From positions 128,001 to 192,000 of the forward strand of contig JBFXLE010000001.1 of assembly GCA_050173015.1 (NCBI GenBank): 64,000 nucleotides of DNA, in the 5' to 3' direction. Source of the DNA: Calditrichaceae bacterium (GTDB lineage: Bacteria; Calditrichota; Calditrichia; Calditrichales; JBFXGD01). Within the stretch, counting starts at the first letter, position 1. Each line of letters starts with the position of its first letter. The notes under the pieces were generated by a model that had not been told where the DNA came from, searched no databases, and saw nothing but the letters and a program-made list of their open reading frames with translations. Of this stretch, positions 14,616-47,592 are shown in pieces. The position numbers and the translations under genes were made by a program.

Positions 14616-14639
14616 GTAGGGACAAGGCATGCCTTGTCC
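14616..14639 (+). repeat. GTAG-type REP-like palindrome
   Basis: GTAG followed by perfect 20-bp palindrome GGACAAGGCATGCCTTGTCC. Confidence 0.7.
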
Positions 14640-14794
14640 GGGAAGTAGGAAGTAAGAAGTAAGAAGTAGGAAGTAAGAAGTAGGAAGTAAGAAGTAAGAA
14701 GTAGGAAGTAAGAAGTAGGAAGTAAGAAGTAAGAAGTAAGAAGTAAGAAGTAAGAATTAAAGAGCGTTAAGAGAAAAGAGTGTAAGAGTTAAGA

Positions 14795-14817
14795 GTAGGG
14801 GCGCGATGCTCGCGCCC
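14795..14817 (+). repeat. GTAG-type REP-like palindrome
   Basis: GTAG followed by GGGCGCGA-TGC-TCGCGCCC hairpin. Confidence 0.7.
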
Positions 14818-14969
14818 AAGAAAAAGAGATAAGAAAAGAAGATTCAACTTTTGTGTTGTTGAAATCTTCGGGGAGATAATTTAACAGTTATCTAATGCTG
14901 GAATTTTGATCAGATTTTGATTGCTGGCAAACAGTCTTTGGAAAATATAATGTAATAACGGAGTTTTGC

Positions 14970-16259
14970 ATGTTATCACAGGATAAAAGTAAAAAATTAT
15001 TTGAAAGATCACAAAAAGTTACTCCCGGCGGGGTAAATTCACCTGTCCGCGCGTTCAAATCGGTGGAAGGAACTCCCGTTTATTTTTCTCACGGGAAAGG
15101 GTCCCACACGTTTGATGTTGATGGCAATGACTATATTGATTATGTGGGATCGTGGGGTCCGCTTATTGTAGGATACTCACACCCGCGAATTATTTCGGCC
15201 TTAAAAGAAGAAGCTGAGAAGGCGACTAGTTTTGGAGCGCCGACCGAGCTGGAAATTGAACTGGCGGAACTCATCACAGAGATAATGCCTTCTGTTGAAA
15301 TGGTACGAATGGTAAACTCGGGTACGGAAGCCACAATGAGCGCTGTCCGTTTAGCAAGGGGATATACGGGGCGTCATAAAATTATTAAATTCAGTGGCTG
15401 CTACCATGGGCACAGCGACAGTTTTCTTATTCAGGCCGGATCGGGAATGACGACACTCGGCACACCTAATAGTCCCGGGGTGACTCCTTCTACAGCCGAG
15501 GACACGTTGATCGCTCGATACAATGATCTGGGTTCTGTTAAGGAATGGATTTCAAAGTTTCCGGATCAGATCGCGGCAATCATTGTGGAACCTGTGGCGG
15601 GTAATATGGGCGTTATTCCTCCGGTGGAGGGTTTTCTTGAGGGTTTACGCAAGGTGACAACTGATAACGGGATAGTGCTAATTTTTGATGAAGTGATGAC
15701 CGGTTTCAGGGTGGCCAGAGGCGGCGCTCAGGAGGTTTATAACATAAAGCCGGATTTGACAACTCTTGGTAAAATCATCGGAGGTGGAATGCCGGTGGGC
15801 GCCTATGGCGGTAAAAAAGAAATTATGGAGCAGATATCACCGGCCGGTCCCGTCTATCAGGCCGGTACACTATCCGGAAATCCGCTTGCAATGAGAGCCG
15901 GTTTGGAAACGTTAAGGATTCTAAACGAGCCCGGTTTCTATGAGACGCTGGAGGAAAAGGCAAAATTATTAGACAACGGGATCCGTGAAAATCTAAAACG
16001 TCTAGGAATGCCATTATATCAGACCAGAGTTGGTTCCATGGGTTGCCTGTTTTTTAATACTGAAATAGTGCATGATTATGATAGCGCCGTACGATCGAAT
16101 ACAAAAAAATACGCGAAATACTTCTGGAATATGCTGGAAGAAGGGGTGTACCTGGCGCCTTCACAGTTTGAAGCGTTCTTCATCTCCGCGGCGCATTCGC
16201 AAAATGATATTCAAAAAACCATCGAAGCAAACTACCGCGCGTTAAAAAAAGTGATTTAG
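14970..16259 (+). CDS. hemL: glutamate-1-semialdehyde 2,1-aminomutase
   Basis: [37 protein letters not shown]. Confidence 0.97.
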
Positions 16260-19211: not shown

Positions 19212-21371
19212 TTATTTTTCACTCATAGTTGTCACACCATCCCAATCCGGACTGGGGCTCGTAAATTTGAAATCAATACATCTTTTTCGATACATTTGAG
19301 ACGGATAATCCTCAGGGACCAATTTGAGACAATATTCAAACAAATCTATGGCCTCTTTCCAGTTTTGTTTTCTGTATTCTATGATTCCTTTATGATATAA
19401 TTCAAGCATTTCCAGATAATTTTGATTCAGAGAAGCGCTTCTTTCGGCGATTAATTCGAAAACCTCAATCGGTTTCTGTTTTCCTTTTACTCTTATCAGA
19501 TCAAGGGGACGTGTAAAAAAATCGTTTTTTATAATGTCATGCGTGAATTCACTGATCATAATTTCCGTCCCGTAAAATTTGTTCGCGCCTTCCAGACGGG
19601 AACCTAAATTGACGTGATCACCCATGACGGTATAATCAAAAACATTTTTTGATCCCATATTCCCAACGATAACTTCACCGGTATTAATTCCTATTCTGGC
19701 CCGGAGCATAGGTTTGTTTTCTTTTTTCCAGTCAGCGCGAAGTTTTTCCAGCTGACGCTGCATTTCAAGAGCAGCGACGCAGCCGGCTCTGGCGTGTTTC
19801 TCATAAAAAACAGGCACCCCAAATTCTGCCATGATCGCGTCACCTTCATATTTATCAATAATTCCGTCATTCTTCAGAACAATATCTGTCATCGATGTGA
19901 GATATTCGTTCAGCAATGATACAAGCTGCCGTGGGGATAGTTTTTCGGAAATGGTTGTAAATCCCACCACATCAGAGAACAGAACAGTCACAACGCGCTC
20001 TTCGCCGCCGAGTGTTAATTTATCGGGATTATTGATGATATCCTGTACCACTTTTTCAGGAACATAATGCGCAAATGCTCCCCGCAAGACGCGTTTTTCG
20101 CGCTGGGACAACAGATACTGATAAACGGTATTACCGACAAAGCTGAATAATATGACCAGTACCGGACTCACAACCTGCAGGAAAATATTAAACTGCTTAA
20201 AAGCGAATACTGAGATAAGGACATACCCGATGGTTACAACGATGGTCACAAACAAGCCCCAGGTTGTATGAACAAAGCGTGTAATAAAAAACACACCGAC
20301 GGCCAAAATAAACATAATCAAAAGACTGACGCTTAAAGACGGCGTTATCAGATAATTATTTTCAAGAATGGCAAGTATGGCATTTGCATGAATTTCCACT
20401 CCCGGCATTTCGGTTTTTACCTGTGCTCCTTCCGCTGAATAATGTTCGAGAAACGGGGTGGGAAAATTATCATGAAGTTCATGCATCGTCGATCCGATGA
20501 GCACGATTTTATCTTTAAATTTTCCTGAATATTTTAGACCCGCCGGAATGCCCAGTTCCGGGTCACCGGGATCATCAAATGAATCAATGTCATACTCGTC
20601 CCGAAGATCAAAATCTTCATCGTCAAGAATGCTGTCAAAGGAATAATAAGGGAACGTAAACGCCGGGCCTTTATAATTAATCAGGAAGCTGTTTGGATCG
20701 TATTTTGGAATCTTATATCCGGACAAATAGAAAAAATTTTTATCCGTTTTTAAGGCATTGGATTTGTTAGTTCCTTCCTTCGCGCGAATCATCTGCGCGG
20801 CAAAAGAAGGCAATAAAGAGTCGTTGTATTGTTGACCGACAAGGTAGCGTCTGTAAAAACCATCAATATCCGCCTCTATAGCCACCAGACCCCAGGAGGT
20901 GTTGCCGGATAAAAATTTCTCGTAAGGCGGAATGATGGTTGTGTATGTATAATTCTGTGAAGTCTGGAGCAGTTTTCCCACCAGAACCACATTATCATAT
21001 AACGAGAGTACGCGTGTAAGTTCATCATCCTGATCAGGACCGTATTTATCAGGTTGATCAAAAATAACATCGACTCCGATCGCTGCGGCCCCCGCTTCTT
21101 CAAGGTTCTCAATAACGTGAGCAAAATAAGATCGCGGCCACGGCCAGCGGTGTGGTGTCGATTCGTCAGACTGGTCATCAATTCCAACGATCACCACCGG
21201 ACTGTCCTCAAGAGATTCAGGTCCGCGCAGCGCGAAACGCAGATCCAGAAGCTTTAGTTCAAGAGTCTGAAATGTGGTGGTATAGCTTAAAAGAAAAGCC
21301 AGAGACACCGACAATACTATAACAAGGAGAAAAATAAAAGGATTATATTTAGACATTGATGTTTTCATCAT
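19212..21371 (-). CDS. CHASE2-domain class III adenylate cyclase
   Basis: CHASE2 (RWPWPRS, GVDVIF, MPGVEIHAN), three TM segments, cyclase motifs FSDVVGFT, DKYEGDA, DYTVMGDHVNLGSRLEG. Confidence 0.92.
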   Translation of the reverse strand: MMKTSMSKYNPFIFLLVIVLSVSLAFLLSYTTTFQTLELKLLDLRFALRGPESLEDSPVVIVGIDDQSDESTPHRWPWPRSYFAHVIENLEEAGAAAIGVDVIFDQPDKYGPDQDDELTRVLSLYDNVVLVGKLLQTSQNYTYTTIIPPYEKFLSGNTSWGLVAIEADIDGFYRRYLVGQQYNDSLLPSFAAQMIRAKEGTNKSNALKTDKNFFYLSGYKIPKYDPNSFLINYKGPAFTFPYYSFDSILDDEDFDLRDEYDIDSFDDPGDPELGIPAGLKYSGKFKDKIVLIGSTMHELHDNFPTPFLEHYSAEGAQVKTEMPGVEIHANAILAILENNYLITPSLSVSLLIMFILAVGVFFITRFVHTTWGLFVTIVVTIGYVLISVFAFKQFNIFLQVVSPVLVILFSFVGNTVYQYLLSQREKRVLRGAFAHYVPEKVVQDIINNPDKLTLGGEERVVTVLFSDVVGFTTISEKLSPRQLVSLLNEYLTSMTDIVLKNDGIIDKYEGDAIMAEFGVPVFYEKHARAGCVAALEMQRQLEKLRADWKKENKPMLRARIGINTGEVIVGNMGSKNVFDYTVMGDHVNLGSRLEGANKFYGTEIMISEFTHDIIKNDFFTRPLDLIRVKGKQKPIEVFELIAERSASLNQNYLEMLELYHKGIIEYRKQNWKEAIDLFEYCLKLVPEDYPSQMYRKRCIDFKFTSPSPDWDGVTTMSEK

Positions 21372-21390
21372 TCAAACCTATGGGTGATTG

Positions 21391-21420
21391 ATAAAAAATA
21401 AAGGTTCCCTTTCGGGAACC
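21391..21420 (-). terminator. terminator-like hairpin upstream of the cyclase
   Basis: Minus strand reads GGTTCCC-GAAA-GGGAACC-TTTATTTTTT. Confidence 0.65.
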
Positions 21421-21434
21421 CATGTCATTAGATG

Positions 21435-23819
21435 TTAAAAGTTTATTTCATAGCGCGTACTAAGAATCGAATCGGACCAGTCAGCGTTATCCCCGTAATC
21501 TATATAATCGTATCTGAGAGATAGATTTCCATAGGTCAGATTTCTCAAAGTCAGCCCGGTGGTGTAGTTGATACGGTTGTAATTTTCATCAAGTGTGCTG
21601 CTTGATGTCGTTATATCCTGCAGTGTTATGTTCAGGAACGGCCTAAGATCGCTTTCCATGACAGCATTTATGAGATTGTAATCCAAACCAATAAATATCT
21701 TATTGATATCGGTATTGCGTTCGGTGTCATTTTTTCCAAAAATGCTGGAGGACTGTGAATAGCTGAATTGTGTAGTGAGAGGAAATGAAAATTTATTGCG
21801 GATTCCGATACTGTAAAGAGTGAATTCCGATTGATTTGATTCGGTTGCCGCGTCATCTCTTAAAAAGTTGGAGGCACTAAAGGTGGCTGTATTTTCGACG
21901 CTGCCGGTTTTGAATTTATAGCTGGATGACAGGCCGATTCGTTGGGTGGAATTGTCTTCCGGGTAGAGCAGAGAATCCGAGGTAAGCGGATTTAAATCAT
22001 TTTTCCGGGATTGGTTTCCATAGGACAGAGTGACACTTGGCAGATTCTGCATGGGAAAATAGGAAATTGCTCCTCCAACATCCGTATTACTTGTTTGCGC
22101 GTTATCCTGATCGAGATTATCATCATATGCTTTGAAATAAATATTAAGATAAACCTGATTGCTTAAAAGACGAACATTGTCATTGATAAAAATCCCGCGG
22201 ATGCCTTTTAATAAATACGGATTTCCGGGAGTTGTGTAGTCAGGATCGATGCTCTTATATGTAAGCTTCAGGTTGTGTCTGAAATAATTAAGGCGCGTTT
22301 CGAACTGCATGGCGACACTCGGAATTGGAGCGAGGCCCTGACTGATCGTTAAAAAGCCTGTTTTTTCCATAAAATTCACAAATGATTCCGCCAGGTCTTT
22401 TTCTGAGCCGGTCAGATCATATCTGTCTGCCAGTGTATCAAAATCCACTTCGGTAGAGGCGTCGTTGTTTATGATGCTGGCATGAACACTGCCTATGAAT
22501 TGAATTCTGTGACCGTCAAAATCAAGGTTCAGGGTACTTCCCAGAGCTAACGCTTCGCGCGGATTCGCTCCATATTTAATGGAATTAGGATCATCTTTAC
22601 CATTAACCAGATCCAATCCCCAGCTCACGTGAGAGCCAAATTTAAACTCCGGTCTGATGCTGAAAAAGGATTGCTCATAACTTCCATACTGGGAGATCCT
22701 GTTTTCATCTGAATTATAGACACCTTCAACCGCCCTTGCTGTCTGTCCAACACTTATATCAAGGTTAAAGTACTTCAGGTTCACACCCATGCCTAACCCG
22801 AGAACTCTCCGGTCCCAGAAAGCAAGCGGATCATAGTAGGCGGTAAAATCCCCCCCCTTTAAATAAATATTGGAATTTTCCCAAAAATTATAGCGCAGGC
22901 GGATTCCAAACCGGTTTTCAGCCTGGCTGTTATAGCTCTCTTCCGAGCTCATCAGACCCGATGCGCCAATATCAAATGCGTTGTAACTCCCGTTAAAATC
23001 AAATCCACCCCGGAAAAAATTATCGGAAGATTCAGAAATATTCTGGTAACGGTTGTCGATAAAAATATTTGTGCGTGAGGTGAAACCGGTTTGCCCGGTG
23101 ATTGTTTCGTTAATTTTAAATGACCAGTTTTTTTGCGCGAGAAGATTACCGTTTTGATCATACACTTTAAATTCGGCGTCATGTGGTCCGGAACGGATTG
23201 ATTTTGGAAGAAAAGTGTATAAATTTTCCTCTCTTATCAATAAAGTTGATACATTAATCCCGTCAATTAACAGGCGCGTACGGGTAAAATCCACAAGATC
23301 GGGATCGAACGGGATCGACACGGCAATCATAAATTCATCTTCGCTGACCGCTTCAAAAGGCTCCGGGCTAAGCAAAAGAAGTTCATAGGGGGTAGAAGCC
23401 GGACCCGTCTGCTGTACCTCCTGCGGAGCAATCTCCATACGGAACGGATTGACATCAGGAGTATACTCAGGGAGGGACAGGACCTCACCTGACGCATCTT
23501 CAAACGCAAAATAGTATTCCACGGCACCGGAATGAATTTTCTCCGTTGGGAGATCGGCATAGAGGCTAAATCCGTCATTTTTAAGTTTGACAGAGCTAAA
23601 TTCATGTTCTCCCTGGCCTCTGTAAAGCAGAGTAGCATTATAGAGGCGCTCCTGCCGGTCAAGTATTCTTATCTCCAGATGCGCGATTTCGCCGTTGATG
23701 ACAGGATCCGGAACATCGTGAGAGAGCTGCCTGGAAAGCGATCCGGCCGAAACGATCTGAAAGAAAAATACGATGAATACGAATATTAAAAGATTCTTCA
23801 TGATAATCTCCTGACGCAA
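21435..23819 (-). CDS. exported protein, predicted outer-membrane beta-barrel with N-terminal Ig-like domains
   Basis: Signal peptide (MKNLLIFVF..., likely start 23801), alternating beta-strand patterns, C-terminal RYEINF signature. Confidence 0.6.
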   Translation of the reverse strand: MRQEIIMKNLLIFVFIVFFFQIVSAGSLSRQLSHDVPDPVINGEIAHLEIRILDRQERLYNATLLYRGQGEHEFSSVKLKNDGFSLYADLPTEKIHSGAVEYYFAFEDASGEVLSLPEYTPDVNPFRMEIAPQEVQQTGPASTPYELLLLSPEPFEAVSEDEFMIAVSIPFDPDLVDFTRTRLLIDGINVSTLLIREENLYTFLPKSIRSGPHDAEFKVYDQNGNLLAQKNWSFKINETITGQTGFTSRTNIFIDNRYQNISESSDNFFRGGFDFNGSYNAFDIGASGLMSSEESYNSQAENRFGIRLRYNFWENSNIYLKGGDFTAYYDPLAFWDRRVLGLGMGVNLKYFNLDISVGQTARAVEGVYNSDENRISQYGSYEQSFFSIRPEFKFGSHVSWGLDLVNGKDDPNSIKYGANPREALALGSTLNLDFDGHRIQFIGSVHASIINNDASTEVDFDTLADRYDLTGSEKDLAESFVNFMEKTGFLTISQGLAPIPSVAMQFETRLNYFRHNLKLTYKSIDPDYTTPGNPYLLKGIRGIFINDNVRLLSNQVYLNIYFKAYDDNLDQDNAQTSNTDVGGAISYFPMQNLPSVTLSYGNQSRKNDLNPLTSDSLLYPEDNSTQRIGLSSSYKFKTGSVENTATFSASNFLRDDAATESNQSEFTLYSIGIRNKFSFPLTTQFSYSQSSSIFGKNDTERNTDINKIFIGLDYNLINAVMESDLRPFLNITLQDITTSSSTLDENYNRINYTTGLTLRNLTYGNLSLRYDYIDYGDNADWSDSILSTRYEINF

Positions 23820-23827
23820 GGAATTGA

Positions 23828-24511
23828 CTACTTAATTTTCTTCGCCTTGAATTTCAATGTTTTTCTTTGTCCCTGTTCATTTTGAAATTCAAATTCAAAT
23901 TCATCGATTGATTCTTCATCATCATCGAGCTGCGGTTTTTCGCCCGGCTTTGTTTTACGTACGATCGGTTTGGCGTTCAGCGAGCTGACATAACCTGTTT
24001 CACCTTCTCTCAACAAGGCCGAACCTTTTTCATTGCTCAGTTCAACAACACCGTCTTCTCCGAAATAAAAAGTCCCCCCCTTAAATTCCTGAACCGTCCA
24101 AAAAATGGTGCCCTTCACAGAGGCGACGGATGTTGGAGTGGATACCCGGTATGATGCTTTTTGACTGGTTATTTTTGAAAATATAGTACCAACTTCGACA
24201 AAAATATTTTTTGCGATTCCCGCGTCTTCTTTGGTTGTATTGATAACGCATGTAGAGTTAGGGCGAATTCGCACGAGACTGGCGTCATCAATAAATTTGA
24301 TTGCTATGTAGCCATCTTTTCCCGTGACAACCTGGTCGCCGGATTCAAGACGGTAGCCGCGTTTAATCTTAGAATCTATTTTCGAGTCAGCTGTTTTTAC
24401 ACTGATACTGCCCTTTGACTTTATAACAACGGCAACAGGATTGGCTGAAAATGACAGGCCAACCGCAAGCAAAAGGATGATAGAAATAAAATTGATTTTT
24501 AAGTTCTTCAT
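23828..24511 (-). CDS. FecR-domain protein
   Basis: Signal peptide, GDQVVTGKDG, IKFIDDASLVRI, VSTPTSVASVKGT. Confidence 0.85.
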   Translation of the reverse strand: MKNLKINFISIILLLAVGLSFSANPVAVVIKSKGSISVKTADSKIDSKIKRGYRLESGDQVVTGKDGYIAIKFIDDASLVRIRPNSTCVINTTKEDAGIAKNIFVEVGTIFSKITSQKASYRVSTPTSVASVKGTIFWTVQEFKGGTFYFGEDGVVELSNEKGSALLREGETGYVSSLNAKPIVRKTKPGEKPQLDDDEESIDEFEFEFQNEQGQRKTLKFKAKKIK

Positions 24512-24521
24512 ATCCAGCCCC

Positions 24522-25625
24522 TTAGTTACTGCTTTGTAAAATTAAATCAAGAATTTCTACTTTTTGGCCTTTGTATTTATTTATAAGCTCATAGAGCTCC
24601 TGAGAAGTAATTTCCTGACCGTTTATCCGGACTGATTTTAAATAGTACTCCAGCAGACTTTTTGATATTTCATCCGCCTTTTCAGCGCCGACAAAATCCG
24701 CGAGCAGTTCTTCAATATCGCCTTTAATCAAAAAGTCCTGCATATTGGACATATTTGAAGGATCCATAAGTTTGAATTGCCAGACTTCACTGAACAGCGC
24801 GTCTTCACCGGCTGATGTGGGGATAAACGATCTTACAAGCCAGTAATATGTTTTGCCAAACTCCAGTGGAAGAGCGCCAATGGCGGGATATTGAACAGAA
24901 AGGGAAGATATTCTTTCCGACGCCCAGCTCGGCGTCATGTTCAATATGTCGTCAATTGTCTGAAGGCCCCGTCTTTTCTCAAAAACGAGTACCTGGTAAT
25001 CACCGCTTGTGCCGATCCATTGGAATAACGGAAATTCCATATAAATTTCTTCCGGGCTGCCGTATCCGATCAAATTACCGGGTGTGACAAGCTGAACTAA
25101 TGATGGATTAGTGATGCTAAAAAAGATTTTATCATCATGGAAATTTCCGGTCGGAGTGAATATATCGATACGCAAATTGTAGTTACCAACCGGCAGCCGG
25201 CCGGAGGAGAGCAAATCTCTTTGCAAATCATTCCCCGCTTCCTTTACACCGCTCTCATAAAATCGGACAGGAGACTGCCCGTTAAAATCAAATTGATTAT
25301 TGATAAGTACGATGTTATCTGTGGAGTAAGGCCCCCCCGCAGGAATCGTAAAATCACGCGATTTTGCCAGGAAAAGAGGATCAGAATCACGTGTGATCCT
25401 GATTTCCATTCTGCTGTTTGGGATTGCGGGTCCGGAATTTATAATGTCAACTTCAAATAATCTCTTGCCCTTGCCGGTCTGCATAAGGTCAAGATCAGAC
25501 AAGTAGACAGTTTTGTAGACATCCGTATCAAGCAAACGGATATTCAAATTAACCTGAGCTTCAGAAAAGGAAAAACTAAGCAGAATAATAGCTGCCACAA
25601 AGCTCTTCAGAATAGAATTCTTCAT
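24522..25625 (-). CDS. exported hypothetical protein
   Basis: Signal peptide ending SEA-Q; beta-rich; FPLFQW and PLEFGKTYYWLV motifs. Confidence 0.6.
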   Translation of the reverse strand: MKNSILKSFVAAIILLSFSFSEAQVNLNIRLLDTDVYKTVYLSDLDLMQTGKGKRLFEVDIINSGPAIPNSRMEIRITRDSDPLFLAKSRDFTIPAGGPYSTDNIVLINNQFDFNGQSPVRFYESGVKEAGNDLQRDLLSSGRLPVGNYNLRIDIFTPTGNFHDDKIFFSITNPSLVQLVTPGNLIGYGSPEEIYMEFPLFQWIGTSGDYQVLVFEKRRGLQTIDDILNMTPSWASERISSLSVQYPAIGALPLEFGKTYYWLVRSFIPTSAGEDALFSEVWQFKLMDPSNMSNMQDFLIKGDIEELLADFVGAEKADEISKSLLEYYLKSVRINGQEITSQELYELINKYKGQKVEILDLILQSSN

Positions 25626-26682: not shown

Positions 26683-27224
26683 TTTGTTTCACTTTCGAAA
26701 TATGACTTTATGAATACCTTAACATATAATATAAATGAATATATGATGCCCGCTGCAGCGAGAATACTGGCGAATTCAAAAAGCTGTTTCTGTCCGAGAA
26801 TAAATAACAATATGGCGATAGCGATGATATTTACGGTTATTTTCCCGGGCATGTTGGATGGTTCTACCACGCTTTTTTTATTCAGAATAAACAGAGATCC
26901 GATCAATATAAGAACATCCCGCCCTACAATAACAATTAGAAACCATAATGGCAGATCCTGATACAAATAGAGCGCTATAACCCCTCCGCCAATTGCAATT
27001 TTATCGGCGACAGGATCAAGGATCTTTCCTAATTCCGTGATCTGATTAAGTTTTCTGGCAAAATATCCGTCAAGAAAATCGGTCAGCATTGCCAACAAAG
27101 TAACCAGCAACAAAATCAGGTTCTGTTTTTCTTTAATCAGATAAAAAAACGGAAATATGACAAATATTCTGCTAAAACTCAAACAATTTGATAACGTAAA
27201 TATTTTTTGTTTTTTCAATTCCAT
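26679..27224 (-). CDS. CDP-alcohol phosphatidyltransferase (PgsA-like)
   Basis: TDFLDGYFARKLNQITELGKILDPVADK. Confidence 0.9.
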   Translation of the reverse strand: MELKKQKIFTLSNCLSFSRIFVIFPFFYLIKEKQNLILLLVTLLAMLTDFLDGYFARKLNQITELGKILDPVADKIAIGGGVIALYLYQDLPLWFLIVIVGRDVLILIGSLFILNKKSVVEPSNMPGKITVNIIAIAILLFILGQKQLFEFASILAAAGIIYSFILYVKVFIKSYFESETK

Positions 27225-28930
27225 TCCACTAAAAAGGGCATAATAGCTAATGGCTGATTCTGAATTTTTCCTAAATGTTCCAATAAATATTCAATCTGCC
27301 CCATATAAGATCTGTTTTTTACGGAGATCACGTCAAAGAGCTGATAGAACAAAGATTTTTCTTTGGGGTAATAAACCAGTCGCACAGATTCATCTTCCGG
27401 GATACCGCTCATTTTTTTCGCGGCATCGATGGCGGTGTAAAACGACCCGGTTGTATCAATTAATCCGTTTTTGTATGCCTGGGAGCCCGTCCAAACGTGA
27501 CCCTGGGCAAGTGATTCAGTCTTTTCATAGGGAATACCGCGGGCAGTAGAAACCATTCCGACAAAGTCAGTATAAAAACTATTAATTAATTTATATACAA
27601 TGGCTCTTTCTGATTCGCTCCATGGTTTCATTATGGAGAAAAGCCCCGCGTTTTTTCCGCGTCTTAGGTGCTCGATATTAAGATCCAGTTTTTTGTATAA
27701 TCCGGTGACATTGAATTTCCCCGCATAGATCCCTATGGAGCCGACGAGACTCGCGGGATTTGCGATAACGGTATCGGCGCCCATCGCTATATAGAAGCCG
27801 CCCGATGCTCCGTAATCCGAAATAGACGCGATAACCGGCTTTTTCTCCGACGCTTTTACTATGGCGGACCAGATGATCTCTGAAGCGGTAGCGGAACCTC
27901 CGGGACTGTCAATTCTCAGTATAATCGCTTTTACACTTCCGGCAGCCGCGGCTTTTTCAAGTTCGCTAACAATGGTTGATGATCCCATCACTTTTCCGAA
28001 AACAGGATCATCCCCGTCCCCTCCGCTTGCGATTGTGCCCGAGCAATTGATGACCGCAATTTTCGATTTGTTTCTGATTTTCAGTGAACTGGCCGGAACA
28101 GACGCATAGCGCGTCGCTGAAATCTTTGTAGGATTCTTGACCCCGGTTTTTAATTTATCCCGCACTTCTGAGTAAAAAGCGGTTCCGTCAATTAAGCCAA
28201 TCTGCAGGGCTTCCTTACCGGTAAAGCCGGATGTCTCATTCATCAGCTTATAAACATCCCCGGTGGAGATGGATCTTTTTAAAGAAATGGTTTGAATGAT
28301 GTCTTCGAAATATTCATCTAGTATGGCTCCAAGAACCTCCCTCTGATCCGGAGACATTGTGCTTCTTGTATAGGGATCAGGCGCGTTCTTGTATTTACCT
28401 ATTTGGATAAATTCTGCCTCAATGCCAAACTTATTAAAAAGTCCTTTATAAAACATGATTTCAGAGTTAAGCCCCGTAATGAATAAATTTCCTGAGGGGG
28501 GCATGAATATGGAATCACAGGCGGTAGCCAGATAATATTCTTTTGTCATGGGTGTTTCAAGATAGGCGAATATTTTTTTCCCGCTTTTTTTATATTCATC
28601 GATCAGGATGTGCAGTTCCTGCAGCTTTGCGTATCCGGTCTGAAGAAAATTGATCTGAAGAATTACCCCATTAATGCGGTCATCGACCGCGGCCTTTTCA
28701 AGGTCCTCACGAATTTTTTTCATATCAAGAGAAGACCGCCCGAAAAAATCTTCCAGCGGATCAGGCGGCACATATTCAGGTAAATCTCCCGAAATTTGAA
28801 TATGCAGATACGAATTAGTAGCCACCGCGGGCTCAGAATCCAGAAGTGAATTCAATAGGAAAACGACCGCGATAATAAAAATGATAAATACAGAAAGTAT
28901 TACCGCAAGCCATTTTAAAAATGTCTTCAT
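27215..28930 (-). CDS. sppA: signal peptide peptidase SppA (long form)
   Basis: GKYKNAPD, LRIDSPGGS, GASGGFYIA, GSIGI. Confidence 0.92.
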   Translation of the reverse strand: MKTFLKWLAVILSVFIIFIIAVVFLLNSLLDSEPAVATNSYLHIQISGDLPEYVPPDPLEDFFGRSSLDMKKIREDLEKAAVDDRINGVILQINFLQTGYAKLQELHILIDEYKKSGKKIFAYLETPMTKEYYLATACDSIFMPPSGNLFITGLNSEIMFYKGLFNKFGIEAEFIQIGKYKNAPDPYTRSTMSPDQREVLGAILDEYFEDIIQTISLKRSISTGDVYKLMNETSGFTGKEALQIGLIDGTAFYSEVRDKLKTGVKNPTKISATRYASVPASSLKIRNKSKIAVINCSGTIASGGDGDDPVFGKVMGSSTIVSELEKAAAAGSVKAIILRIDSPGGSATASEIIWSAIVKASEKKPVIASISDYGASGGFYIAMGADTVIANPASLVGSIGIYAGKFNVTGLYKKLDLNIEHLRRGKNAGLFSIMKPWSESERAIVYKLINSFYTDFVGMVSTARGIPYEKTESLAQGHVWTGSQAYKNGLIDTTGSFYTAIDAAKKMSGIPEDESVRLVYYPKEKSLFYQLFDVISVKNRSYMGQIEYLLEHLGKIQNQPLAIMPFLVEWN

Positions 28931-32036: not shown

Positions 32037-32480
32037 TTAGAAGGGAAGATCATCCGATTCATGTCCATCGTCCGCGGACGGTTTCTCTGAAACCTTGCTG
32101 TCATCCGAAGCAGGTTCATCCTGATATGTGGATTCACTATCACCTTTTGAGCCCAGAAGCTGCAGGTTAAGGGCAATAATCTCGGTTTTGTACTTTTTTT
32201 GGCCTTGCTGGTCTTCCCAACTGCTTGTTTGCAGGCGCCCTTCCAGATAAACTAATTTACCCTTTTTTAAATACTCACCGACAAATTCAGCCGTTTTCCC
32301 AAAAGTAACGATGTTGTGCCATTCGGTTTTATCCGTCCATGAACCTTCGGCATCCTTTTGGCCGTGATTTGTGGCAACAGAAAAGCTCGCGATTGCAGTT
32401 CCGCCGGGCGAATACCGCATATCAGGGTCTTGGCCAAGGCGACCGATGATAATCGCTTTGTTCACAGTTCCTCGTGACAT
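32037..32480 (-). CDS. ssb: single-stranded DNA-binding protein
   Basis: VNKAIIIGRLGQDP, TEWHNI, C-terminal DDLPF. Confidence 0.96.
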   Translation of the reverse strand: MSRGTVNKAIIIGRLGQDPDMRYSPGGTAIASFSVATNHGQKDAEGSWTDKTEWHNIVTFGKTAEFVGEYLKKGKLVYLEGRLQTSSWEDQQGQKKYKTEIIALNLQLLGSKGDSESTYQDEPASDDSKVSEKPSADDGHESDDLPF

Positions 32481-32522
32481 GAGTCCTCCAATGTTGGTTT
32501 AAATTTGATAGATAGGTTATTT

Positions 32523-32567
32523 AGAAAAATAGCCTCAGAACAGAATAAGACAAGTTCAGAGGCTATT
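32523..32567 (-). terminator. intrinsic terminator downstream of the peptide array
   Basis: AATAGCCTC...GAGGCTATT stem followed by a T-run on the minus strand. Confidence 0.7.
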
Positions 32568-32632
32568 AAAGTTAAAAAAATTATCAAAAAATACAAGTTA
32601 AAATATTTTAATTGACATTTACTTTCCGATCC

Positions 32633-32788
32633 TTAAGGTTTCGGGCGCGGAGGCGGAGGTAAAGGAACAATAGTGGCGAATTCAGCGCCGGATCTTGGGC
32701 TTGCATCCGTAGTTGCCGTACTCAGTATGGTCATAAAAATGGCCGCTGCGAAAACGAAGGTTACTATTATTGCTGCAATCTTTTTCAT
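32633..32788 (-). CDS. 51-aa exported proline-rich peptide, copy 1
   Basis: AAGGAG RBS then MKKIAAIIVTFVFAAAIFMTILSTATTDASPRSGAEFATIVPLPPPPRPKP; differs from copy 2 only at synonymous sites. Confidence 0.85.
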   Translation of the reverse strand: MKKIAAIIVTFVFAAAIFMTILSTATTDASPRSGAEFATIVPLPPPPRPKP

Positions 32789-32840
32789 GTGATAACTCCT
32801 TAAGACAGTGTTGTTGTAATTCATTCAATAAACCGTTTGA

Positions 32841-32996
32841 TTATGGTTTTGGGCGCGGAGGCGGAGGTAAAGGAACAATAGTGGCAAATTCAGCGCCGGA
32901 TCTTGGGCTTGCATCCGTAGTTGCTGTACTCAGTATGGTCATAAAAATGGCCGCTGCGAAAACAAAGGTTACTATAATTGCTGCAATCTTTTTCAT
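32841..32996 (-). CDS. 51-aa exported proline-rich peptide, copy 2
   Basis: Same RBS, identical protein to copy 1, 208-bp period. Confidence 0.85.
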   Translation of the reverse strand: MKKIAAIIVTFVFAAAIFMTILSTATTDASPRSGAEFATIVPLPPPPRPKP

Positions 32997-33048
32997 GTGA
33001 TAACTCCTTAATACAGTGTTGTTGTAATTCATTCAATGAACCGTTTGA

Positions 33049-33204
33049 TTATGGTTTTGGGCGCGGAGGCGGAGGTAAAGGAACAATAGTGGCGAATTCA
33101 GCGCCGGATTTTGGGCTTCCGTTTGTTGATGCTACGTCCACAACCGTGAAAACGATTGCTGCCGCAAATACCAATGCGACAATGAGGGAGGCCAACTTTT
33201 TCAT
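33049..33204 (-). CDS. 51-aa exported proline-rich peptide, copy 3
   Basis: AAGGAG RBS then MKKLASLIVALVFAAAIVFTVVDVASTNGSPKSGAEFATIVPLPPPPRPKP; last 19 aa identical to copies 1 and 2. Confidence 0.85.
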   Translation of the reverse strand: MKKLASLIVALVFAAAIVFTVVDVASTNGSPKSGAEFATIVPLPPPPRPKP

Positions 33205-33299
33205 GTGATAACTCCTTTGTTGGGGGTGTGATTTGTATTTATGAAAAGAAAAGTAATTCCGTGAATAGGGGGCTGATAAACAGAAATAGTATGTCATGG

Positions 33300-33660
33300 A
33301 TCAGATCTTTCTTACAGCAATTTTGTAATTAAAAGATCCATCTAAAAATTGGGGGCTTCCGTGCGGGTAACAGGTTTAATTGAATAAATTAACTGTTATT
33401 TGAATCATCTCTGAATATTATCAGATCTTCCATACAGCAGTTCTGTAATTTAAAGATCCATCTAAAAATTGGGGGCTTCCGTGCGGGTAACAGGTTTAAT
33501 TGAATAAATTACCTGTTATTAGAATCGTCTCTGATTATTATCAGATCTTCCATACAGCAGTTCTGTAATTTAAAGATCCATCTAAAATTTTAAGGCTTCC
33601 GTGCGGTGAACAGGTTTAATTGAATAATTTACCTGTTAATTGAATCGTCGCTGATTATTA
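33300..33660. repeat. 3 x 120-bp tandem repeat with internal hairpins
   Basis: Units start at 33301, 33421 and 33541 and align without gaps; each carries two inverted repeats. Confidence 0.95.
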
Positions 33661-33847
33661 AATGAGTAGGACTAACCGGGATAATACTGCAAATCCAGGT
33701 TCTGTTGTCATGAAATTCAATGATACTGTATCTTTCAGGAAATTGGTTCTGAAGAATTTGGCGGATATCTGAGACGCATGAAAATGTCTGAACGATCAGA
33801 AAAAAAAGTGATATGGCAAATATAATAGGTTTTAGCAGTTCCCGCAT
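33629..33847 (-). CDS. putative 72-aa small protein with hydrophobic N-terminus
   Basis: GGAG 6 nt upstream of ATG; signal-like MRELLKPIIFAISLFFLIVQTFSC; ends inside the repeat. Confidence 0.4.
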   Translation of the reverse strand: MRELLKPIIFAISLFFLIVQTFSCVSDIRQILQNQFPERYSIIEFHDNRTWICSIIPVSPTHLIISDDSINR

Positions 33848-33963
33848 CCCTGTCTCCAGTTGCTTAACGAGAACCTTCCGTGGTTGGATTTGACTTCCCT
33901 GGTGAGCTCAATATGAGCAGTAAAAGTCGAACAGTACGTGAGTCGACATAAATGATTTATAAG

Positions 33964-33991
33964 AATATAATTAATACATGTGAAAATGCAA
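33964..33991 (-). promoter_or_regulatory. possible sigma70 promoter for the peptide island
   Basis: Minus strand TTGCAT-16 nt-TATATT; same -35 hexamer as the heme promoter. Confidence 0.35.
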
Positions 33992-34130
33992 TAATTAATA
34001 TCTATATTATTGACATTTTAGTCACTTCCCATAAGCGCATTTAATTTAATTTTTTTATACCGCGGTTAAAACTTTGTTATAAAATTAATATTTTGCTAAA
34101 TTTAAGTCTTTGATCGGATACTACAGGAAA

Positions 34131-34631
34131 ATGGATCTATCTGTGAAAAATAATGAGAATATCTTGGCACAAAGGATTTTAATCACAGGTTTTACGCTGT
34201 TGTCGGTCTGGATGCTCATGTTATCTTTTGCCCCGATGTTAATGAACAGCGGTTCTTATGCGGCGCAGTACGCGGCGACCATCGTATATTTTATGACGGA
34301 TCCTGTTTGTCATCAGCTGCCGGAACGAAGTCTGTTTATTTCAGGAATACCCATGCCCGTGTGCGCGCGTTGCTATTTTATATATCTGGGTGGGTGGACG
34401 ACATTCCTGATCCCTGTTTTTAGCGGGAAAATCAATTTTTGGCGTTACAGAGTATATTTGATCATGGGGATAATTATTTTAGCGGAATTTGTATCTGAAA
34501 AAACCGGTCTTTACCAAAATTTGGCCGGGATACGGATGATCGCGGGATTCTTATTGGGAATACTGATATTCAGATTAATTATTGAAGCATTAAATTTGAA
34601 TGAACAAAGAGGGACAGAGGAAAATGGATAA
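34131..34631 (+). CDS. DUF2085-like membrane protein
   Basis: VCHQLPERSLF...MPVCARC signature; ATG 34131 preferred. Confidence 0.8.
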   Translation: MDLSVKNNENILAQRILITGFTLLSVWMLMLSFAPMLMNSGSYAAQYAATIVYFMTDPVCHQLPERSLFISGIPMPVCARCYFIYLGGWTTFLIPVFSGKINFWRYRVYLIMGIIILAEFVSEKTGLYQNLAGIRMIAGFLLGILIFRLIIEALNLNEQRGTEENG

Positions 34632-43857: not shown

Positions 43858-44574
43858 TTGAGCGAATCCAAAGCAACTCCTAAAAATAGGTTCAGGGATG
43901 TTACAGAGGGTCTTGTTGTAGCGTTGCTGGCGGCTTTGATCATCAGACAATTTATCGTTCAGGCATATACCATTCCGACGTCATCCATGGAAGATACGCT
44001 CCTGGTAGGAGATTTTCTATTGGTGAATAAATTTAATTATGGAATGCGTTCGCCTGACTGGATCGGAATACCATACACCGATATCGGTTTTGATATGCCC
44101 TGGTTTCGCTTGCCCGCGATCAGGCAACCGGAACCTTATGATGTGGTCGTATTCAGATACCCGGAAAATCCCAGTTTGGATTATATAAAGAGATGTATCG
44201 CGAAAAGCGGGCAGGTCGTAAAGGTGAAGGATAAAATTGTCTATGTGGATGACCAGGAGTTCAGAAGACCGCCATTTTCCAAGTATATTGACCCGCATAT
44301 TTATCAGCGAAATCAGGGCGCCTATATTTTCCCTACGTTTATGAGTTTGGGGAGCAGGGATAATTATGGTCCTCTTTTAATCCCTGAAGATTCATTCTGG
44401 ATGATGGGCGATAATCGCGATAACAGCTCTGACAGCCGACAGTGGGGATTTGTCACATACGATCATATCGTGGGCGAGGCTTTAATTATTTATTTTTCAT
44501 GGAATTCGAGACTGCCCTGGACACAATTTTTCAATAAAATACGTTTTGACCGAATAGGTACCGTTATCAGATAA
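43858..44574 (+). CDS. lepB: signal peptidase I
   Basis: IPTSSMEDTL, YIKRC, MGDNRDNSSDSR; TTG start. Confidence 0.95.
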   Translation: MSESKATPKNRFRDVTEGLVVALLAALIIRQFIVQAYTIPTSSMEDTLLVGDFLLVNKFNYGMRSPDWIGIPYTDIGFDMPWFRLPAIRQPEPYDVVVFRYPENPSLDYIKRCIAKSGQVVKVKDKIVYVDDQEFRRPPFSKYIDPHIYQRNQGAYIFPTFMSLGSRDNYGPLLIPEDSFWMMGDNRDNSSDSRQWGFVTYDHIVGEALIIYFSWNSRLPWTQFFNKIRFDRIGTVIR

Positions 44575-44624: not shown

Positions 44625-45794
44625 ATGCGCTTAAATATGAAAAAAAATATCAGCCCTTTTCCGGGTATTTATATACATATTCCATATTGTGATACCAAAT
44701 GCGGATATTGCGATTTTTATTCGGTGACCAATCACTCGGGCAGGAAACATTTCATACCTTCTCTGATAAAAGAGATGGAGAGTAAGGCCGGGGAAATCCC
44801 GGAAGAAACCGTCTTTGATACTATCTATCTCGGTGGCGGCACCCCTTCGTTACTAACACGGGATGAACTTGAACCCTTGTTCGAATCCCTTCATAAAAAT
44901 CTCCATTTTGCTGAAAACACCGAAATCACTATAGAAGCGAACCCGGGCACAATTAGCAAAGAGAGTTTTCGTCTCTACAGGTCGCTGGGGATAAACCGGC
45001 TGAGTATCGGTATACAGAGCTTTTCAGATAAAGAACTAAAATTTCTGGGGAGAATTCACACCGCGGAACAGGCAATCAAAACTGTTGATCTGGCCAGAGA
45101 AGAAGATATTCGGAATATAAGCATCGATTTGATTTTCGCGTTACCGGGACAAACCCTGATTCAATGGAAACAAAATCTTGAGACGGCAATGGGCCTGAAT
45201 CCGGAGCATATATCCGCCTATAATCTGATATTCGAGGAAGGAACTCCCTTTTATTCATCCATGTTAAAGGGTAATATCATTCCCAAAAAGGATGAGGATG
45301 AAAGCCGTTTTTTTGCGGAGACCATTCAGTTTTTGGCGGGAAAAAATTATGTTCATTATGAAGTTTCAAATTTCGCTCGGGACGAATCTCTTTTCTCGCG
45401 TCATAACTATAAATACTGGGATCACACTAATTACCTGGGATTTGGTCCGTCGGCTCATTCATTCTGGGGGCAGAAAAGATGGTCCAATGTCCGTTCCGTT
45501 GCGCAATATGTGAGTAAAATACAGACAGGCAAAAGCCCTGAGGCGTTCTCCGAAATTCTGAATACGGAAACAAGGATTTTTGAAAGTATATTTTTGGGTC
45601 TGAGAACTTTGTCGGGTATTGATTTGAAACGGTTTGAGTCTCTTTATCAAAAATCGTTCCTTGATTTATATAAACAAAAAGTTCAGGATTTGATTGCTGA
45701 CGAATTCGCCGAGATCACGGATTCACATTTTCGGCTGACCAAAAAAGGATTATTTATTTGTGATGAAATATTACCTGCGTTTGCTCCTAATTAG
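44625..45794 (+). CDS. hemW: radical SAM heme chaperone HemW
   Basis: YIHIPYCDTKCGYCDF, YEVSNF, HNYKYW; lepA-linked; lacks the HemN N-terminal PRYTSYP. Confidence 0.88.
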   Translation: MRLNMKKNISPFPGIYIHIPYCDTKCGYCDFYSVTNHSGRKHFIPSLIKEMESKAGEIPEETVFDTIYLGGGTPSLLTRDELEPLFESLHKNLHFAENTEITIEANPGTISKESFRLYRSLGINRLSIGIQSFSDKELKFLGRIHTAEQAIKTVDLAREEDIRNISIDLIFALPGQTLIQWKQNLETAMGLNPEHISAYNLIFEEGTPFYSSMLKGNIIPKKDEDESRFFAETIQFLAGKNYVHYEVSNFARDESLFSRHNYKYWDHTNYLGFGPSAHSFWGQKRWSNVRSVAQYVSKIQTGKSPEAFSEILNTETRIFESIFLGLRTLSGIDLKRFESLYQKSFLDLYKQKVQDLIADEFAEITDSHFRLTKKGLFICDEILPAFAPN

Positions 45795-47592
45795 CCTTTT
45801 GCTGATTTCCGCGGGCATTACAGAGAGCGCTCTTTACGCTCAGGCCGGAAACCGTCTGCAAATTGCTAAAGTACTTGAAAAAGCCGGTCAGTATAAGGAC
45901 GCGCTCCAGATATATTTGCCCATGTACCGTTCGGGTGACCGGTCTGTTCAGGTAATTTCGGGAATTGAGAACTCGTACAGAGAGCTGTCGCAGTATGATG
46001 AACTTATTGAATTTCTATCCGGTCTGACGCGTGAATATCCGGAAAACATAAGTTATCAAATAAATCTCGGATCAGCCCGGTATCTGAATAACCAGAAGGA
46101 CAAAGCTCTTCAAATCTGGCAGGCGGTGTATAACACAGAACCGCAGAATATTATGAATTACCGGTTGATCGCATCCGCGATGATCCAGTTAAGATTGTAT
46201 GATCAGGCTATTGATGTTTATAAACAGGCGATGCGGCGGATAAAAAACCAGGAAATATTGTACAGGGAGATCGGGAATCTTTACAGAGCGCAATTAAATT
46301 ATGAACGCGCGGTGGATAATTTTCTTCATTATTATCGCTATGACACAAAACAGTTTAACTATGTAAACATCCAGATAATAACAATGTCGAAAGATGACGA
46401 AGCCGTCGGCAGAATCATCGACGCGATTACCGATCACACAAACCAATTCGGGAGTGATCCCTTAATTGATGAACTTCTGGCCGGAATGTATATAAGGAAA
46501 AAGGAATTCGGAAACGCTTTTAAAATTTACCGGCAGCTGGATCAGCAGGACAAAAACCGCAATTATTTGATTCTTTTTGGAAAAGAAGCCGAAAAAAATT
46601 GGGCCTTCGAATATGCCATTCAGGCTTATAAATTAATGCTTAATGACAGCGGAGATGAAAGAAACAAGGAGCAGGTTCAGTTAAGTCTCGCAAAATGTAC
46701 CTATGACTTCGGCGAAGAACTGAGCAAAAAGGGAGATCAGCTGAAAGCGGGGCAGCGGGTGGAAGAATCCATCAGGATGCTTGAATCCATCCAAAAGCAG
46801 GTGACCAGACAGGATGTAAAAAGAGATGCCCTTGAACTTCAGGGTGACATACATCTTGAATTCTATAATGACACGGATAAAGCGATTGATTTATATTCAC
46901 AACTGCTAAAGGAAAATTTACCTGTTCACATTGCCGGAAGAGTCAAAATCAAGCTTGGTCAGTCTTTCCTGATAAAAAATGATCTGAATACGGCATTAAA
47001 AATATTTCGTTCGGTTAACAACGGACAGTACGCGAACCGGGCCTCATACTATCTGGCGGAAATCAGTTTTTACAACGGGCAGTTTAGCAGCGCGCGGTCA
47101 GGGTTTGAGCATTTGATTTCACGCGCGGGGATGAGCGATACGCTTGCCAACAACGCGCTGGAGAGAATATTTTTAATTGATCAGTATGCCGCCGATTCGA
47201 CCGGACTTGCTGAATTTTCCGCGGCGGAATTGCTTCTGGCGCGGGAGAAACGATCGGAAGCGGCTAAGAAATACAATGAACTTTTTTTGAAAAAAAAACA
47301 AATCAGTCCGATGGCCGGGTTAAAGGCGGCATCCGTTTACAAAAGTCTTGAGATGTCAGATGAAGGCATGGCTGTCCTGGAAAGTTTTATTTCAGCCTAT
47401 CCGGATGATCCGGAAATCGATAAGGCTTTTTTCTCACTGGCCGGAATATATGAGCGACAATCTGACTTTGTGAAGGCGATTGCCTGTTACCAGCAAATAT
47501 TACAAAATTATCCCGGAAGTTTTTATCTCGATGAGGCCAGGAACAACATACGCGAAATAACGCCAATTTTGGAAAGTCTTAAAAAACAATGA
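45760..47592 (+). CDS. exported tetratricopeptide-repeat protein
   Basis: Signal peptide, many TPR-like helix pairs, C-terminal YPGSFY. Confidence 0.8.
   Translation: MMKYYLRLLLISLLLISAGITESALYAQAGNRLQIAKVLEKAGQYKDALQIYLPMYRSGDRSVQVISGIENSYRELSQYDELIEFLSGLTREYPENISYQINLGSARYLNNQKDKALQIWQAVYNTEPQNIMNYRLIASAMIQLRLYDQAIDVYKQAMRRIKNQEILYREIGNLYRAQLNYERAVDNFLHYYRYDTKQFNYVNIQIITMSKDDEAVGRIIDAITDHTNQFGSDPLIDELLAGMYIRKKEFGNAFKIYRQLDQQDKNRNYLILFGKEAEKNWAFEYAIQAYKLMLNDSGDERNKEQVQLSLAKCTYDFGEELSKKGDQLKAGQRVEESIRMLESIQKQVTRQDVKRDALELQGDIHLEFYNDTDKAIDLYSQLLKENLPVHIAGRVKIKLGQSFLIKNDLNTALKIFRSVNNGQYANRASYYLAEISFYNGQFSSARSGFEHLISRAGMSDTLANNALERIFLIDQYAADSTGLAEFSAAELLLAREKRSEAAKKYNELFLKKKQISPMAGLKAASVYKSLEMSDEGMAVLESFISAYPDDPEIDKAFFSLAGIYERQSDFVKAIACYQQILQNYPGSFYLDEARNNIREITPILESLKKQ

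Follow-up and report, generated by a model that had tools for sequence, protein, structure and literature searches.

Three tandem genes for a small protein with a conserved polyproline motif in a Calditrichaceae genome

What is made by three 51-codon genes that stand one behind the other in the chromosome of a Calditrichaceae bacterium, and whose products end in the same proline-rich tail? The array occupies positions 32633–33204, on the minus strand, of a 64,000-nucleotide stretch of that genome (contig JBFXLE010000001.1, positions 128,001 to 192,000, assembly GCA_050173015.1), which we call the window and to which all coordinates refer unless another contig is named. A first-pass annotation, made from the sequence alone, had taken the three open reading frames (ORFs) for genes of a small exported peptide and offered several candidate roles, among them a signalling peptide, an antimicrobial-like peptide, a membrane-anchored proline ligand and a toxin. 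We find that the ORFs are real genes under selection at the protein level and that, by sequence comparison, they belong to a small-protein family without earlier description that is seen so far only in Calditrichota. Our tentative reading of the product is a signal-anchored small membrane protein displaying a periplasmic polyproline docking motif, which we weigh here against a secreted peptide, a ribosome-pausing signal, a type I toxin and a non-coding element.

Three genes under protein-level selection

Each ORF comprises 51 codons followed by TAA. In the direction of reading the array opens with copy 3 (W3; 33049–33204, minus strand), a B-type isoform, continues with copy 2 (W2; 32841–32996, minus strand) and ends with copy 1 (W1; 32633–32788, minus strand), the last two being A-type isoforms with identical proteins. 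The first-pass annotation had placed three 51-codon ORFs here at a 208-bp period; they are present as it described, but on the minus strand. W3 sits inside a longest ORF of 82 residues (33049–33297). Over 32633–33118, Tandem Repeats Finder detects 2.3 copies of a 208-bp unit (96% matches, score 909), and this span reaches into W3 up to about codon 29–30. W1 and W2 differ at eight of 208 positions: two lie in the 52-nt spacer and six are coding, all of them third-position and synonymous, and these are exactly the codon pairs that had been listed before. W1 and W3 differ at 68 of 208 positions. The W3 protein consists of MKK, a 19-residue hydrophobic segment, a linker and a tail, SGAEFATIVPLPPPPRPKP; its MKK-type leader is unlike the A-type leader in sequence yet hydrophobic, and residues 33–51 (SGAEFATIVPLPPPPRPKP) are the same in W1, W2 and W3, so that the diverged hydrophobic leader of copy 3 and the identity of the last 19 residues, both noted at first pass, are plain in the sequence.

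That these ORFs encode proteins is best seen in comparison with a related genome. Scanning genome contigs with patterns for the N-terminal half gave 299 pattern matches, of which two were relatives, both in one metagenome-assembled genome (MAG) named 'Calditrichaceae bacterium' (contigs L001 and L002), which is collinear over ~20 kb at 87–88% nucleotide identity. Against the A-type copy of the MAG (L001 164–319), W1 shows 16 synonymous and no non-synonymous changes and W2 shows 22 and none; W3 and the B-type copy (L002 10001–10156) differ by 12 synonymous and three non-synonymous changes. Were changes placed at random, 16 synonymous changes out of 16 would have a probability of about 5e-10. 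By region, the A leader has changed across species at 9–12 synonymous and no non-synonymous sites, the B leader at eight and three, and the tail at up to ten and none. Purifying selection on the peptide, proposed at first pass from the two A-type copies, is thus borne out across species (0/16 and 0/22 non-synonymous changes for the A type). On the same comparison, the A and B isoforms are older than the split of the two species.

The reading frame itself can be judged from these changes. In the sense frame, non-synonymous changes number 0/6, 0/16, 0/22 and 3/15 in the four orthologue or duplicate comparisons, the lowest of the six frames in all four. It is extremely improbable that the array is not protein-coding, whether as a 208-bp DNA or RNA element or with antisense ORFs as the genes. 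The antisense frame that shares the wobble position is open, with 76-residue ORFs at 32770–33000 and 32978–33208, and it too is low in non-synonymous changes (1/6, 2/16, 3/22 and 4/15); however, the sense frame does better in every comparison, the antisense ORFs begin with TTG and have no Shine-Dalgarno (SD) sequence, homologues at 29–55% identity retain the layout of MKK, helix and PPP, and the array has no match in Rfam. Since the sense frame has the fewest non-synonymous changes and is accompanied by SD sequences and a terminator, the three ORFs are real protein genes.

Those expression signals are well marked. The SD sequence AAGGAG stands 7 nt before the ATG of copy 1 (32796–32801, minus strand), and the same element recurs at +208 for copy 2 (33004–33009, minus strand) and at +416 for copy 3 (33212–33217, minus strand); the spacer of copy 1, TTATCAC, occupies 32789–32795, and the AAGGAG-TTATCAC-ATG start reported at first pass can be read directly before all three ATGs. 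An SD sequence of at least 6 nt precedes only 6 of the 54 large ORFs in the window. The initiation regions are less structured than shuffled sequences (z +1.97, +0.40 and +1.62), with 198, 129 and 197 of 200 shuffles folding at least as well. Strong, exposed SD sequences and unstructured initiation regions agree and fit efficient translation of the three ORFs, and the genes of the array are probably highly expressed.

The intergenic spacers are 52 nt long and unstructured. Behind copy 1 lies an intrinsic terminator (32523–32567, minus strand), with 14-nt arms at 32554–32567 and 32528–32541, a 12-nt loop and a T-run. Its inverted repeat, 93% complementary, starts 65 nt past the W1 stop; the segment 32490–32632 folds at -26.4 kcal/mol (z -3.63), as well as which only 1 of 200 shuffles folds. 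The terminator is also kept in the related MAG and divides the array from ssb (32037–32480). Because the spacers are short and unstructured and a terminator stands before ssb, the three genes look like one short operon ending ahead of ssb. A scan for sigma-70-like promoters 5' of copy 3 gave nothing convincing (six sites, with 6.7 expected), and in the promoter and terminator scan plus-strand sites fell only outside the array, with no antisense promoter-like site within 32633–33204.

Constraint is one cause of the shared tail. Codons 33–51 of the A and B copies in the MAG are separated by ten synonymous and no non-synonymous changes, a distribution with a chance probability of about 4e-6, and the tail is therefore under direct constraint at the protein level. 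In the window genome a further process is apparent: synonymous divergence (pS) between A and B is 0.06–0.12 in the tail and 0.76–0.80 in the leader, so that gene conversion or unequal crossing-over has evidently homogenised the 3' part of the genes. For all three window tails, the nearer MAG tail is that of the B copy (4–5 synonymous differences, as against 7–10 from the A tail). Part of the tail invariance within the window genome is thus due to gene conversion, since the tails there are near-identical at the nucleotide level, unlike those of the MAG. Window and MAG copies become identical from S30-P31 onward. With 3.8% divergence between its copies, the A-type duplication looks recent. Both MAG contigs end within the array (L001 1–319 and L002 10001–10260), their 213-nt overlap contains one mismatch, and the copy number in the MAG is at least two. 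At that mismatch the partial copy on L001 reads PLPQPP for PLPPPP, which may be a difference between paralogues or an assembly error.

A small-protein family of the Calditrichota

Searched exhaustively with a profile at a cut-off of E≤1e-3, 1.84 billion representatives yielded 15 proteins, the window's own among them; all are 51–68 residues long and share a common layout, except one of 98 residues. A word-index search with an enlarged alignment drew 1059 candidates, 22 of them proteins at E≤0.01, and the four of these 22 that carry organism names all belong to Calditrichota. Together the two protein searches amount to 25 distinct small proteins of 51–72 residues and the 98-residue protein, P0017. 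The family alignment (A3) contains 25 sequences and leaves out P0017 and P0003, a B-type copy with an over-long predicted start.

The family consensus runs MKKLAxLIVAxVFxxxIxLAVxNTA, a variable linker, the motif [YF]-A-x-I-x-P-[LIVF]-P-P-P and a short, variable end rich in K, D, E and G. The phenylalanine F13 is invariant (25/25 aligned sequences). Within the motif, position 37 is Y in 14 and F in seven of the 25 sequences, position 40 is I in 17 and position 42 is P in 20; position 43 is L, I, F or V throughout, and the three prolines P44, P45 and P46 are present in 24, 24 and 25. The first proline of the polyproline run falls at residue 41–44 in 24/25, and the linker is therefore near-constant in length while variable in sequence. 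Mean column entropy, calculated for 22 non-redundant sequences (below 85% identity), is 0.09 for MKK, 1.63 for the helix (residues 4–22), 2.34 for the linker, 1.28 for the motif and 2.12 for the last four residues.

These figures bear on two claims of the first-pass annotation. The polyproline tail that it called invariant holds in part: the core [YF]AxIxP[LIVF]PPP is kept in the homologues and the terminal RPKP is not. Its argument that a variable leader beside a fixed tail indicates a precursor with an active C-terminal product is unsupported as it stood, for leaders are conserved across species, and in the family conservation is higher in the hydrophobic N-terminal segment than in the linker (entropy 1.63 vs 2.34), and this segment contains the invariant Phe13. 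A diverged N-terminus with an identical tail is found in 3/8 close family pairs and the pattern is reversed in others.

The one long relative is informative about the motif. P0017 (98 residues) has a shorter, signal-peptide-like start followed by three tandem 17-residue units, each with IPLPPPPKPKP, almost the same as the tail motif of the window; since a signal-like start here precedes three motif units, the layout suggests that the polyproline motif works as a module outside the cytoplasm. Two pairs of family members, P0011/P0026 and P0013/P0024, have longest contigs of equal size within each pair (6790 nt and 577 nt), and they suggest that tandem paralogues occur in other lineages too. As to longer or fused members, none emerged at E≤0.1 when 8000 candidates of 127–2000 residues were scored, which is weak evidence. 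A scan of all six-frame ORFs with the family hidden Markov model and the pattern P[LIVF]PPP detected no extra member in the window, L001 or L002, and tblastn against plasmids and phages gave no match at E≤1.

The first-pass annotation had recognised no family, and indeed no entry in Pfam, NCBIfam, PHROGs, PADLOC, Rfam or the PDB describes the peptides. For the three copies Pfam gave 0 families at E≤10 and the best NCBIfam scores were 13–13.7 bits against cut-offs of 25–260; the best PHROGs match (E 0.0019) was to a family of unknown function and covered the N-terminal helix only, and PADLOC had no match for the peptides. The homologue P0020 scored 28.1 bits against YxzE (PF25184), below the cut-off of 40. 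Searched alone, the 22-residue tail had 0 PDB matches at E≤10. In the ESM Atlas the peptide scored at best 0.80 and P0017 0.79 (range 0.77–0.80), which is chance level by the calibration of the tool; at these scores the nearest entries for both were the same two 72-residue clusters from Acidobacteriota. No such protein is described in the literature searched.

Anchor, secreted peptide or nascent-chain signal

The proposal of a signal-anchored small membrane protein begins with the N-terminal helix. The uncharged hydrophobic run is exactly 19 residues long in 17 of 26 proteins (range 15–24; window copies 19–24). In our own classification of other window proteins, signal-peptide-like N-termini have runs of 11–16 residues and N-terminal membrane helices runs of 19–23. 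Sec signal peptides combine a positive n-region with a hydrophobic core of about 7–15 residues; the positive MKK n-region is present in all copies. AlphaFold2, given the family alignment and copy 1, predicts a helix over residues 2–26 and no regular structure in the remainder (mean pLDDT 78.6), and conservation along the helix follows an i+4 stripe (A5, I8/V9, F13, I17 and V21). Past the helix, the 25-sequence alignment shows no pair of columns in which small residues are kept at -1 together with -3 across the family; most sequences have N at the aligned -3 position, and several have F, I, L or V at -1. An uncleaved anchor is favoured because of the long hydrophobic run, the predicted helix, the conserved helix sequence and the lack of a family-wide cleavage pattern. 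The membrane-anchored proline ligand, one of the roles suggested at first pass, is accordingly the candidate that we retain, with a topology, an uncleaved leader and a docking role that we infer.

In such a protein, MKK and the 19-residue helix would stay in place as the signal anchor; the N-terminus would face the cytoplasm and the C-terminus the outside, and the last 25–29 residues would lie in the periplasm. There, the motif would form a short extended stretch leading into a polyproline-II helix and could serve as a docking ligand for a putative partner, while the conserved helix face (A5, I8/V9, F13, I17, V21) might pack on that partner or on other copies in the membrane. The tandem copies would provide a higher dosage and two helix variants sharing one tail.

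Several observations weigh against this proposal, and some of them speak for a cleaved, secreted peptide instead, with the N-terminal 25–29 residues as a Sec signal peptide and a proline-rich product of 22–26 residues, ending IVPLPPPPRPKP, released to the periplasm or medium as a signal, matrix component or envelope ligand. The AlphaFold2 helix cannot discriminate between an anchor and a signal peptide, the i+4 stripe is not significant (helical-moment permutation p = 0.11), and no partner candidate was found among the neighbourhood genes. The N-terminus, with MKK before a hydrophobic core, resembles Sec signal peptides; the only PDB profile matches are signal peptides (E 0.15–4.3), and Phr_nterm, DUF6520 and LPAM_1 are matched weakly, below their thresholds. 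At the end of the helix the window copies hold acceptable signal-peptidase sites, S-T-A before T in the A type and V-A-S before T in the B type, where T-N-G before S is also plausible; and it is at S30-P31 that the identity among window and MAG copies begins. P0017, too, passes from an ordinary signal-like start to its three motif copies. Given the acceptable sites and the signal-peptide matches, cleavage stays a serious rival, but on balance we think it unlikely. The 19-residue run exceeds the 11–16 of the window's signal-peptide-like N-termini; a leader conserved family-wide with F13 invariant, and without non-synonymous change in the A type across species, is not what a discarded segment predicts, nor is there a family-wide -3/-1 pattern; the Phr_nterm score is 13.7 bits against a cut-off of 25; and no receptor, exporter or peptidase gene adjoins the array.

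A role during synthesis would place the function elsewhere: [YF]AxIxP[LIVF]PPP would stall the ribosome ~40 codons past the start of the hydrophobic helix, and the pause would let a very short ORF reach the signal recognition particle (SRP) or YidC/Sec or, alternatively, would report the status of elongation factor P (EF-P), proline or the translocon, the peptide acting on the ribosome. The PPP is indeed the best-conserved feature (24, 24 and 25 of 25), the near-fixed linker puts the first proline at residue 41–44 in 24/25, and positions 1, 4, 6, 7 and 8–10 of the conserved 10-mer share their register with FxxYxIWPPP, a synthetic, laboratory-selected arrest peptide whose F, Y, I and W ahead of PPP are essential according to the available text of two sources (PMC7897499; bioRxiv 10.1101/2024.02.28.582505). 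Both thus run aromatic, x, x, hydrophobic, x, residue, hydrophobic, P-P-P; they differ in the residues at three of the four key upstream positions, where 4, 6 and 7 are I, P and L/I/F/V here and Y, I and W in the synthetic peptide. In E. coli, polyproline motifs are enriched 3' of transmembrane helices, where they are proposed to aid insertion, but at 49–59 residues from the helix start (PMC5811046, available text) compared with 40–42 here. An N-terminal localisation signal with a conserved C-terminal motif is also the layout of monitoring substrates, and SecM, MifM, VemP, ApcA, ApdA and ApdP share it, with proline in the motif; the search criteria for such substrates in the available text of PMC7897499, however, are 80–200 residues and a hydrophilic domain of at least 40, whereas our peptide is much shorter at 51 residues, leaves too small a gap between helix and motif (24 residues from helix end to P46) and has no sec or yidC gene downstream. 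No regulated gene follows at all, copy 1 being succeeded by the terminator and then ssb, and with unstructured spacers there is no hairpin over the SD sequence that a pause could open. To arrest ribosomes on three ORFs with strong initiation would be expensive, and the invariant F13 speaks for a role of the finished protein. We therefore hold pausing to be decidedly unlikely, and it is equally doubtful that the family is a natural, phylum-wide counterpart of the WPPP arrest peptide with a pause 40–42 codons after the helix start; if it were, the ribosome would keep hold of the 51-codon ORF, which is too short for the usual co-translational targeting, until it is engaged by SRP or YidC, or else the status of EF-P, proline or the translocon would govern how much of an abundant envelope protein is made, and the same prolines would later form the periplasmic ligand. 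Very unlikely, finally, is a type I toxin, that is, small pore-forming or depolarising peptides in tandem under an RNA antitoxin. Type I toxin loci of E. coli such as ldr and ibs are multiplied in tandem, and the toxins (Hok/Gef, Ldr and Ibs) resemble our peptides in size and in having one helix; fewer than 60 residues with one helix and a C-terminal extension is the build of Hok/Gef toxins in the available text of PMC12648545. Beside the three genes, moreover, stand three 120-bp repeats, and beside the at least two genes of the MAG stand two. Yet the SD sequences here are strong and exposed, in initiation regions without a sequestering fold, just 52 nt separate the genes, no antisense promoter-like site was found within 32633–33204, the 120-bp unit shares with the spacers a single AT-rich match of 17–20 nt (E 0.24–0.83), PADLOC gives no match, and a phylum-wide, predicted periplasmic motif under strong purifying selection is atypical of such toxins. 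The toxin candidate of the first-pass annotation is disfavoured on these grounds.

Surroundings, related systems and meaning

The signal-anchored protein that we tentatively favour would be encoded in unremarkable surroundings. On one side the array is followed by ssb, cdd, udk and tdk, and on the other stand an ORF of 72 residues, genes for DUF2085 and DUF4199 proteins, and prfA; the 64-kb window as a whole is ordinary chromosome, with genes for haem biosynthesis, RNase R, prmC, nucleoside salvage, sppA, prfA, rho, lepA, lepB and recQ. By the gene annotation of the window, no gene for a peptide receptor, modifying enzyme, exporter or peptidase lies near the array; the first-pass annotation had seen no modifying enzyme or receptor adjacent, and in the remainder of the 64 kb, too, no gene resembles one for a peptide receptor, modifying enzyme or exporter. 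The window contains no sec or yidC gene, apart from lepB (43858–44574) and sppA (27215–28930), neither of them adjacent, and the tetratricopeptide repeat (TPR) protein closest to the array is encoded 12 kb off, at 45760–47592. No tRNA or transfer-messenger RNA was found in the window. Rfam gave 0 matches at the gathering threshold over the whole window, and at E≤1 over 32400–34150 one chance-level match, gut-2, at 17.7 bits vs 39.8.

Directly 5' of the array, between it and the 72-residue ORF, are the three 120-bp tandem repeats (33300–33659, no strand assigned; period 120, 3.0 copies, 92% matches by Tandem Repeats Finder), of which the MAG carries two units. The number of units (three in the window, two in the MAG) tracks the number of genes (three vs at least two). 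Each unit has two conserved palindromes, AACAGGT-N15-ACCTGTT and GATCTT...ACAG-N5-CTGT...AAGATC, and a site TCTGAT-N4-ATCAGA occurs at the junctions of units. There is no further copy of the unit elsewhere in the window, and its similarity to the array spacers is confined to the AT-rich match already mentioned. As structured RNA the repeats are unconvincing (z -0.8 to -2.0, compensatory change in 1/26 pairs). From their position alone, they may be part of the 5' or regulatory region of the array.

The 72-residue ORF (33629–33847, minus strand) is conserved and has a lipoprotein-like look, with a hydrophobic N-terminus ending in Cys. It matches its MAG orthologue at 58/72 residues, with a non-synonymous divergence (pN) of 0.119 and a pS of 0.415, and has no Pfam, PHROGs or PADLOC family. 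The first 120-bp repeat begins with the last ~32 nt of this ORF, and the later repeats hold a degenerate copy of its final codons.

Two other parts of the window may be recorded. A minus-strand run of envelope and signalling genes at 19212–25625 includes a CHASE2-adenylate/guanylate cyclase (19212–21371), a FecR-domain protein (23828–24511) and proteins of 794 and 367 residues that have signal-peptide-like starts and no Pfam family. On the plus strand, 4853–16259 is a haem cluster of hemA, hemC, hemD, hemE, a protoporphyrinogen-oxidase-like flavoprotein, hemB and a hemL-like gene, in which a TetR-family regulator sits between hemC and hemD.

Among known systems, the small membrane proteins of fewer than ~60 residues such as YohP and AcrZ are alike in size, in a single N-terminal hydrophobic helix and in having no enzymatic domain; they have no sequence relationship to the family, which differs in its conserved extramembrane polyproline motif and its tandem isoforms. 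The targeting of very short membrane ORFs is probably not fully co-translational (PMC7549839; PMC12648545, available text of both), and the latter, which reviewed small membrane proteins of bacteria in 2025, uses neither 'proline' nor 'tandem' (0 occurrences of each in the available text). A membrane-anchored polyproline ligand has a conceptual parallel in animals. There, the polyproline-II helix of PRiMA/ColQ is membrane-anchored and partner subunits wrap around it. The parallel does not extend to sequence, for the homologue P0008 scores 16.1 bits against PRIMA1 (cut-off 38.6) and the resemblance is compositional only; anchor and proline stretch are in the opposite order, and the organisms are unrelated.

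Three other identities were considered and rejected. Phr pro-peptides of Bacillus are small and exported, with a hydrophobic N-terminus of the MKK type and the active part at the C-terminal end, a plan that our peptides would share. The Bacillus peptides come from another phylum, and here the leader is conserved; phr genes overlap or directly follow a rap gene, which encodes a TPR phosphatase or regulator, and no rap gene adjoins the array. The Phr N-terminal model TIGR04429 scores 13.7 bits for copy 3, below its cut-off of 25, and does not match copies 1 and 2, so that the Phr-like peptide proposed at first pass is set aside. In proline-rich antimicrobial peptides, PRP or PxP-Arg motifs recur and the net charge is strongly positive; oncocin, apidaecin and Bac7 share with our tails a Pro-rich, mildly cationic stretch of ~20 residues, but derive from insects and mammals, whereas here the source is bacterial and a hydrophobic N-terminus precedes. 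The tail SPRSGAEFATIVPLPPPPRPKP contains two R, one K and one E, with a net charge of about +2, and has R-P and K-P once each. Its charge is low when set against the usual definition of proline-rich antimicrobial peptides (compare PMC11678341), and the ends of the homologues are not conserved, being mixed tails of K, D, E and G; the Pro/Arg antimicrobial-like peptide suggested at first pass was dropped for these reasons. A TonB-like protein was likewise rejected: TonB has an N-terminal anchor, a proline-rich spacer and a C-terminal TonB domain, but here there is no C-terminal domain, and no protein of 127–2000 residues matched the family profile at E≤0.1, again weak evidence.

Small membrane and exported proteins are poorly annotated, and outside model organisms almost nothing is known of them; databases carry the genes described here as 'hypothetical protein' or omit them. 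The family is nevertheless cleanly defined, strongly selected and probably abundant, in a phylum that is little studied, and its sharp 10-residue motif makes direct experiments feasible. Were the motif a natural pausing signal, it would bear on how the products of very short ORFs are delivered to the membrane; should it prove to be a docking ligand, the family would add a phylum-specific component to the envelope of the Calditrichota.

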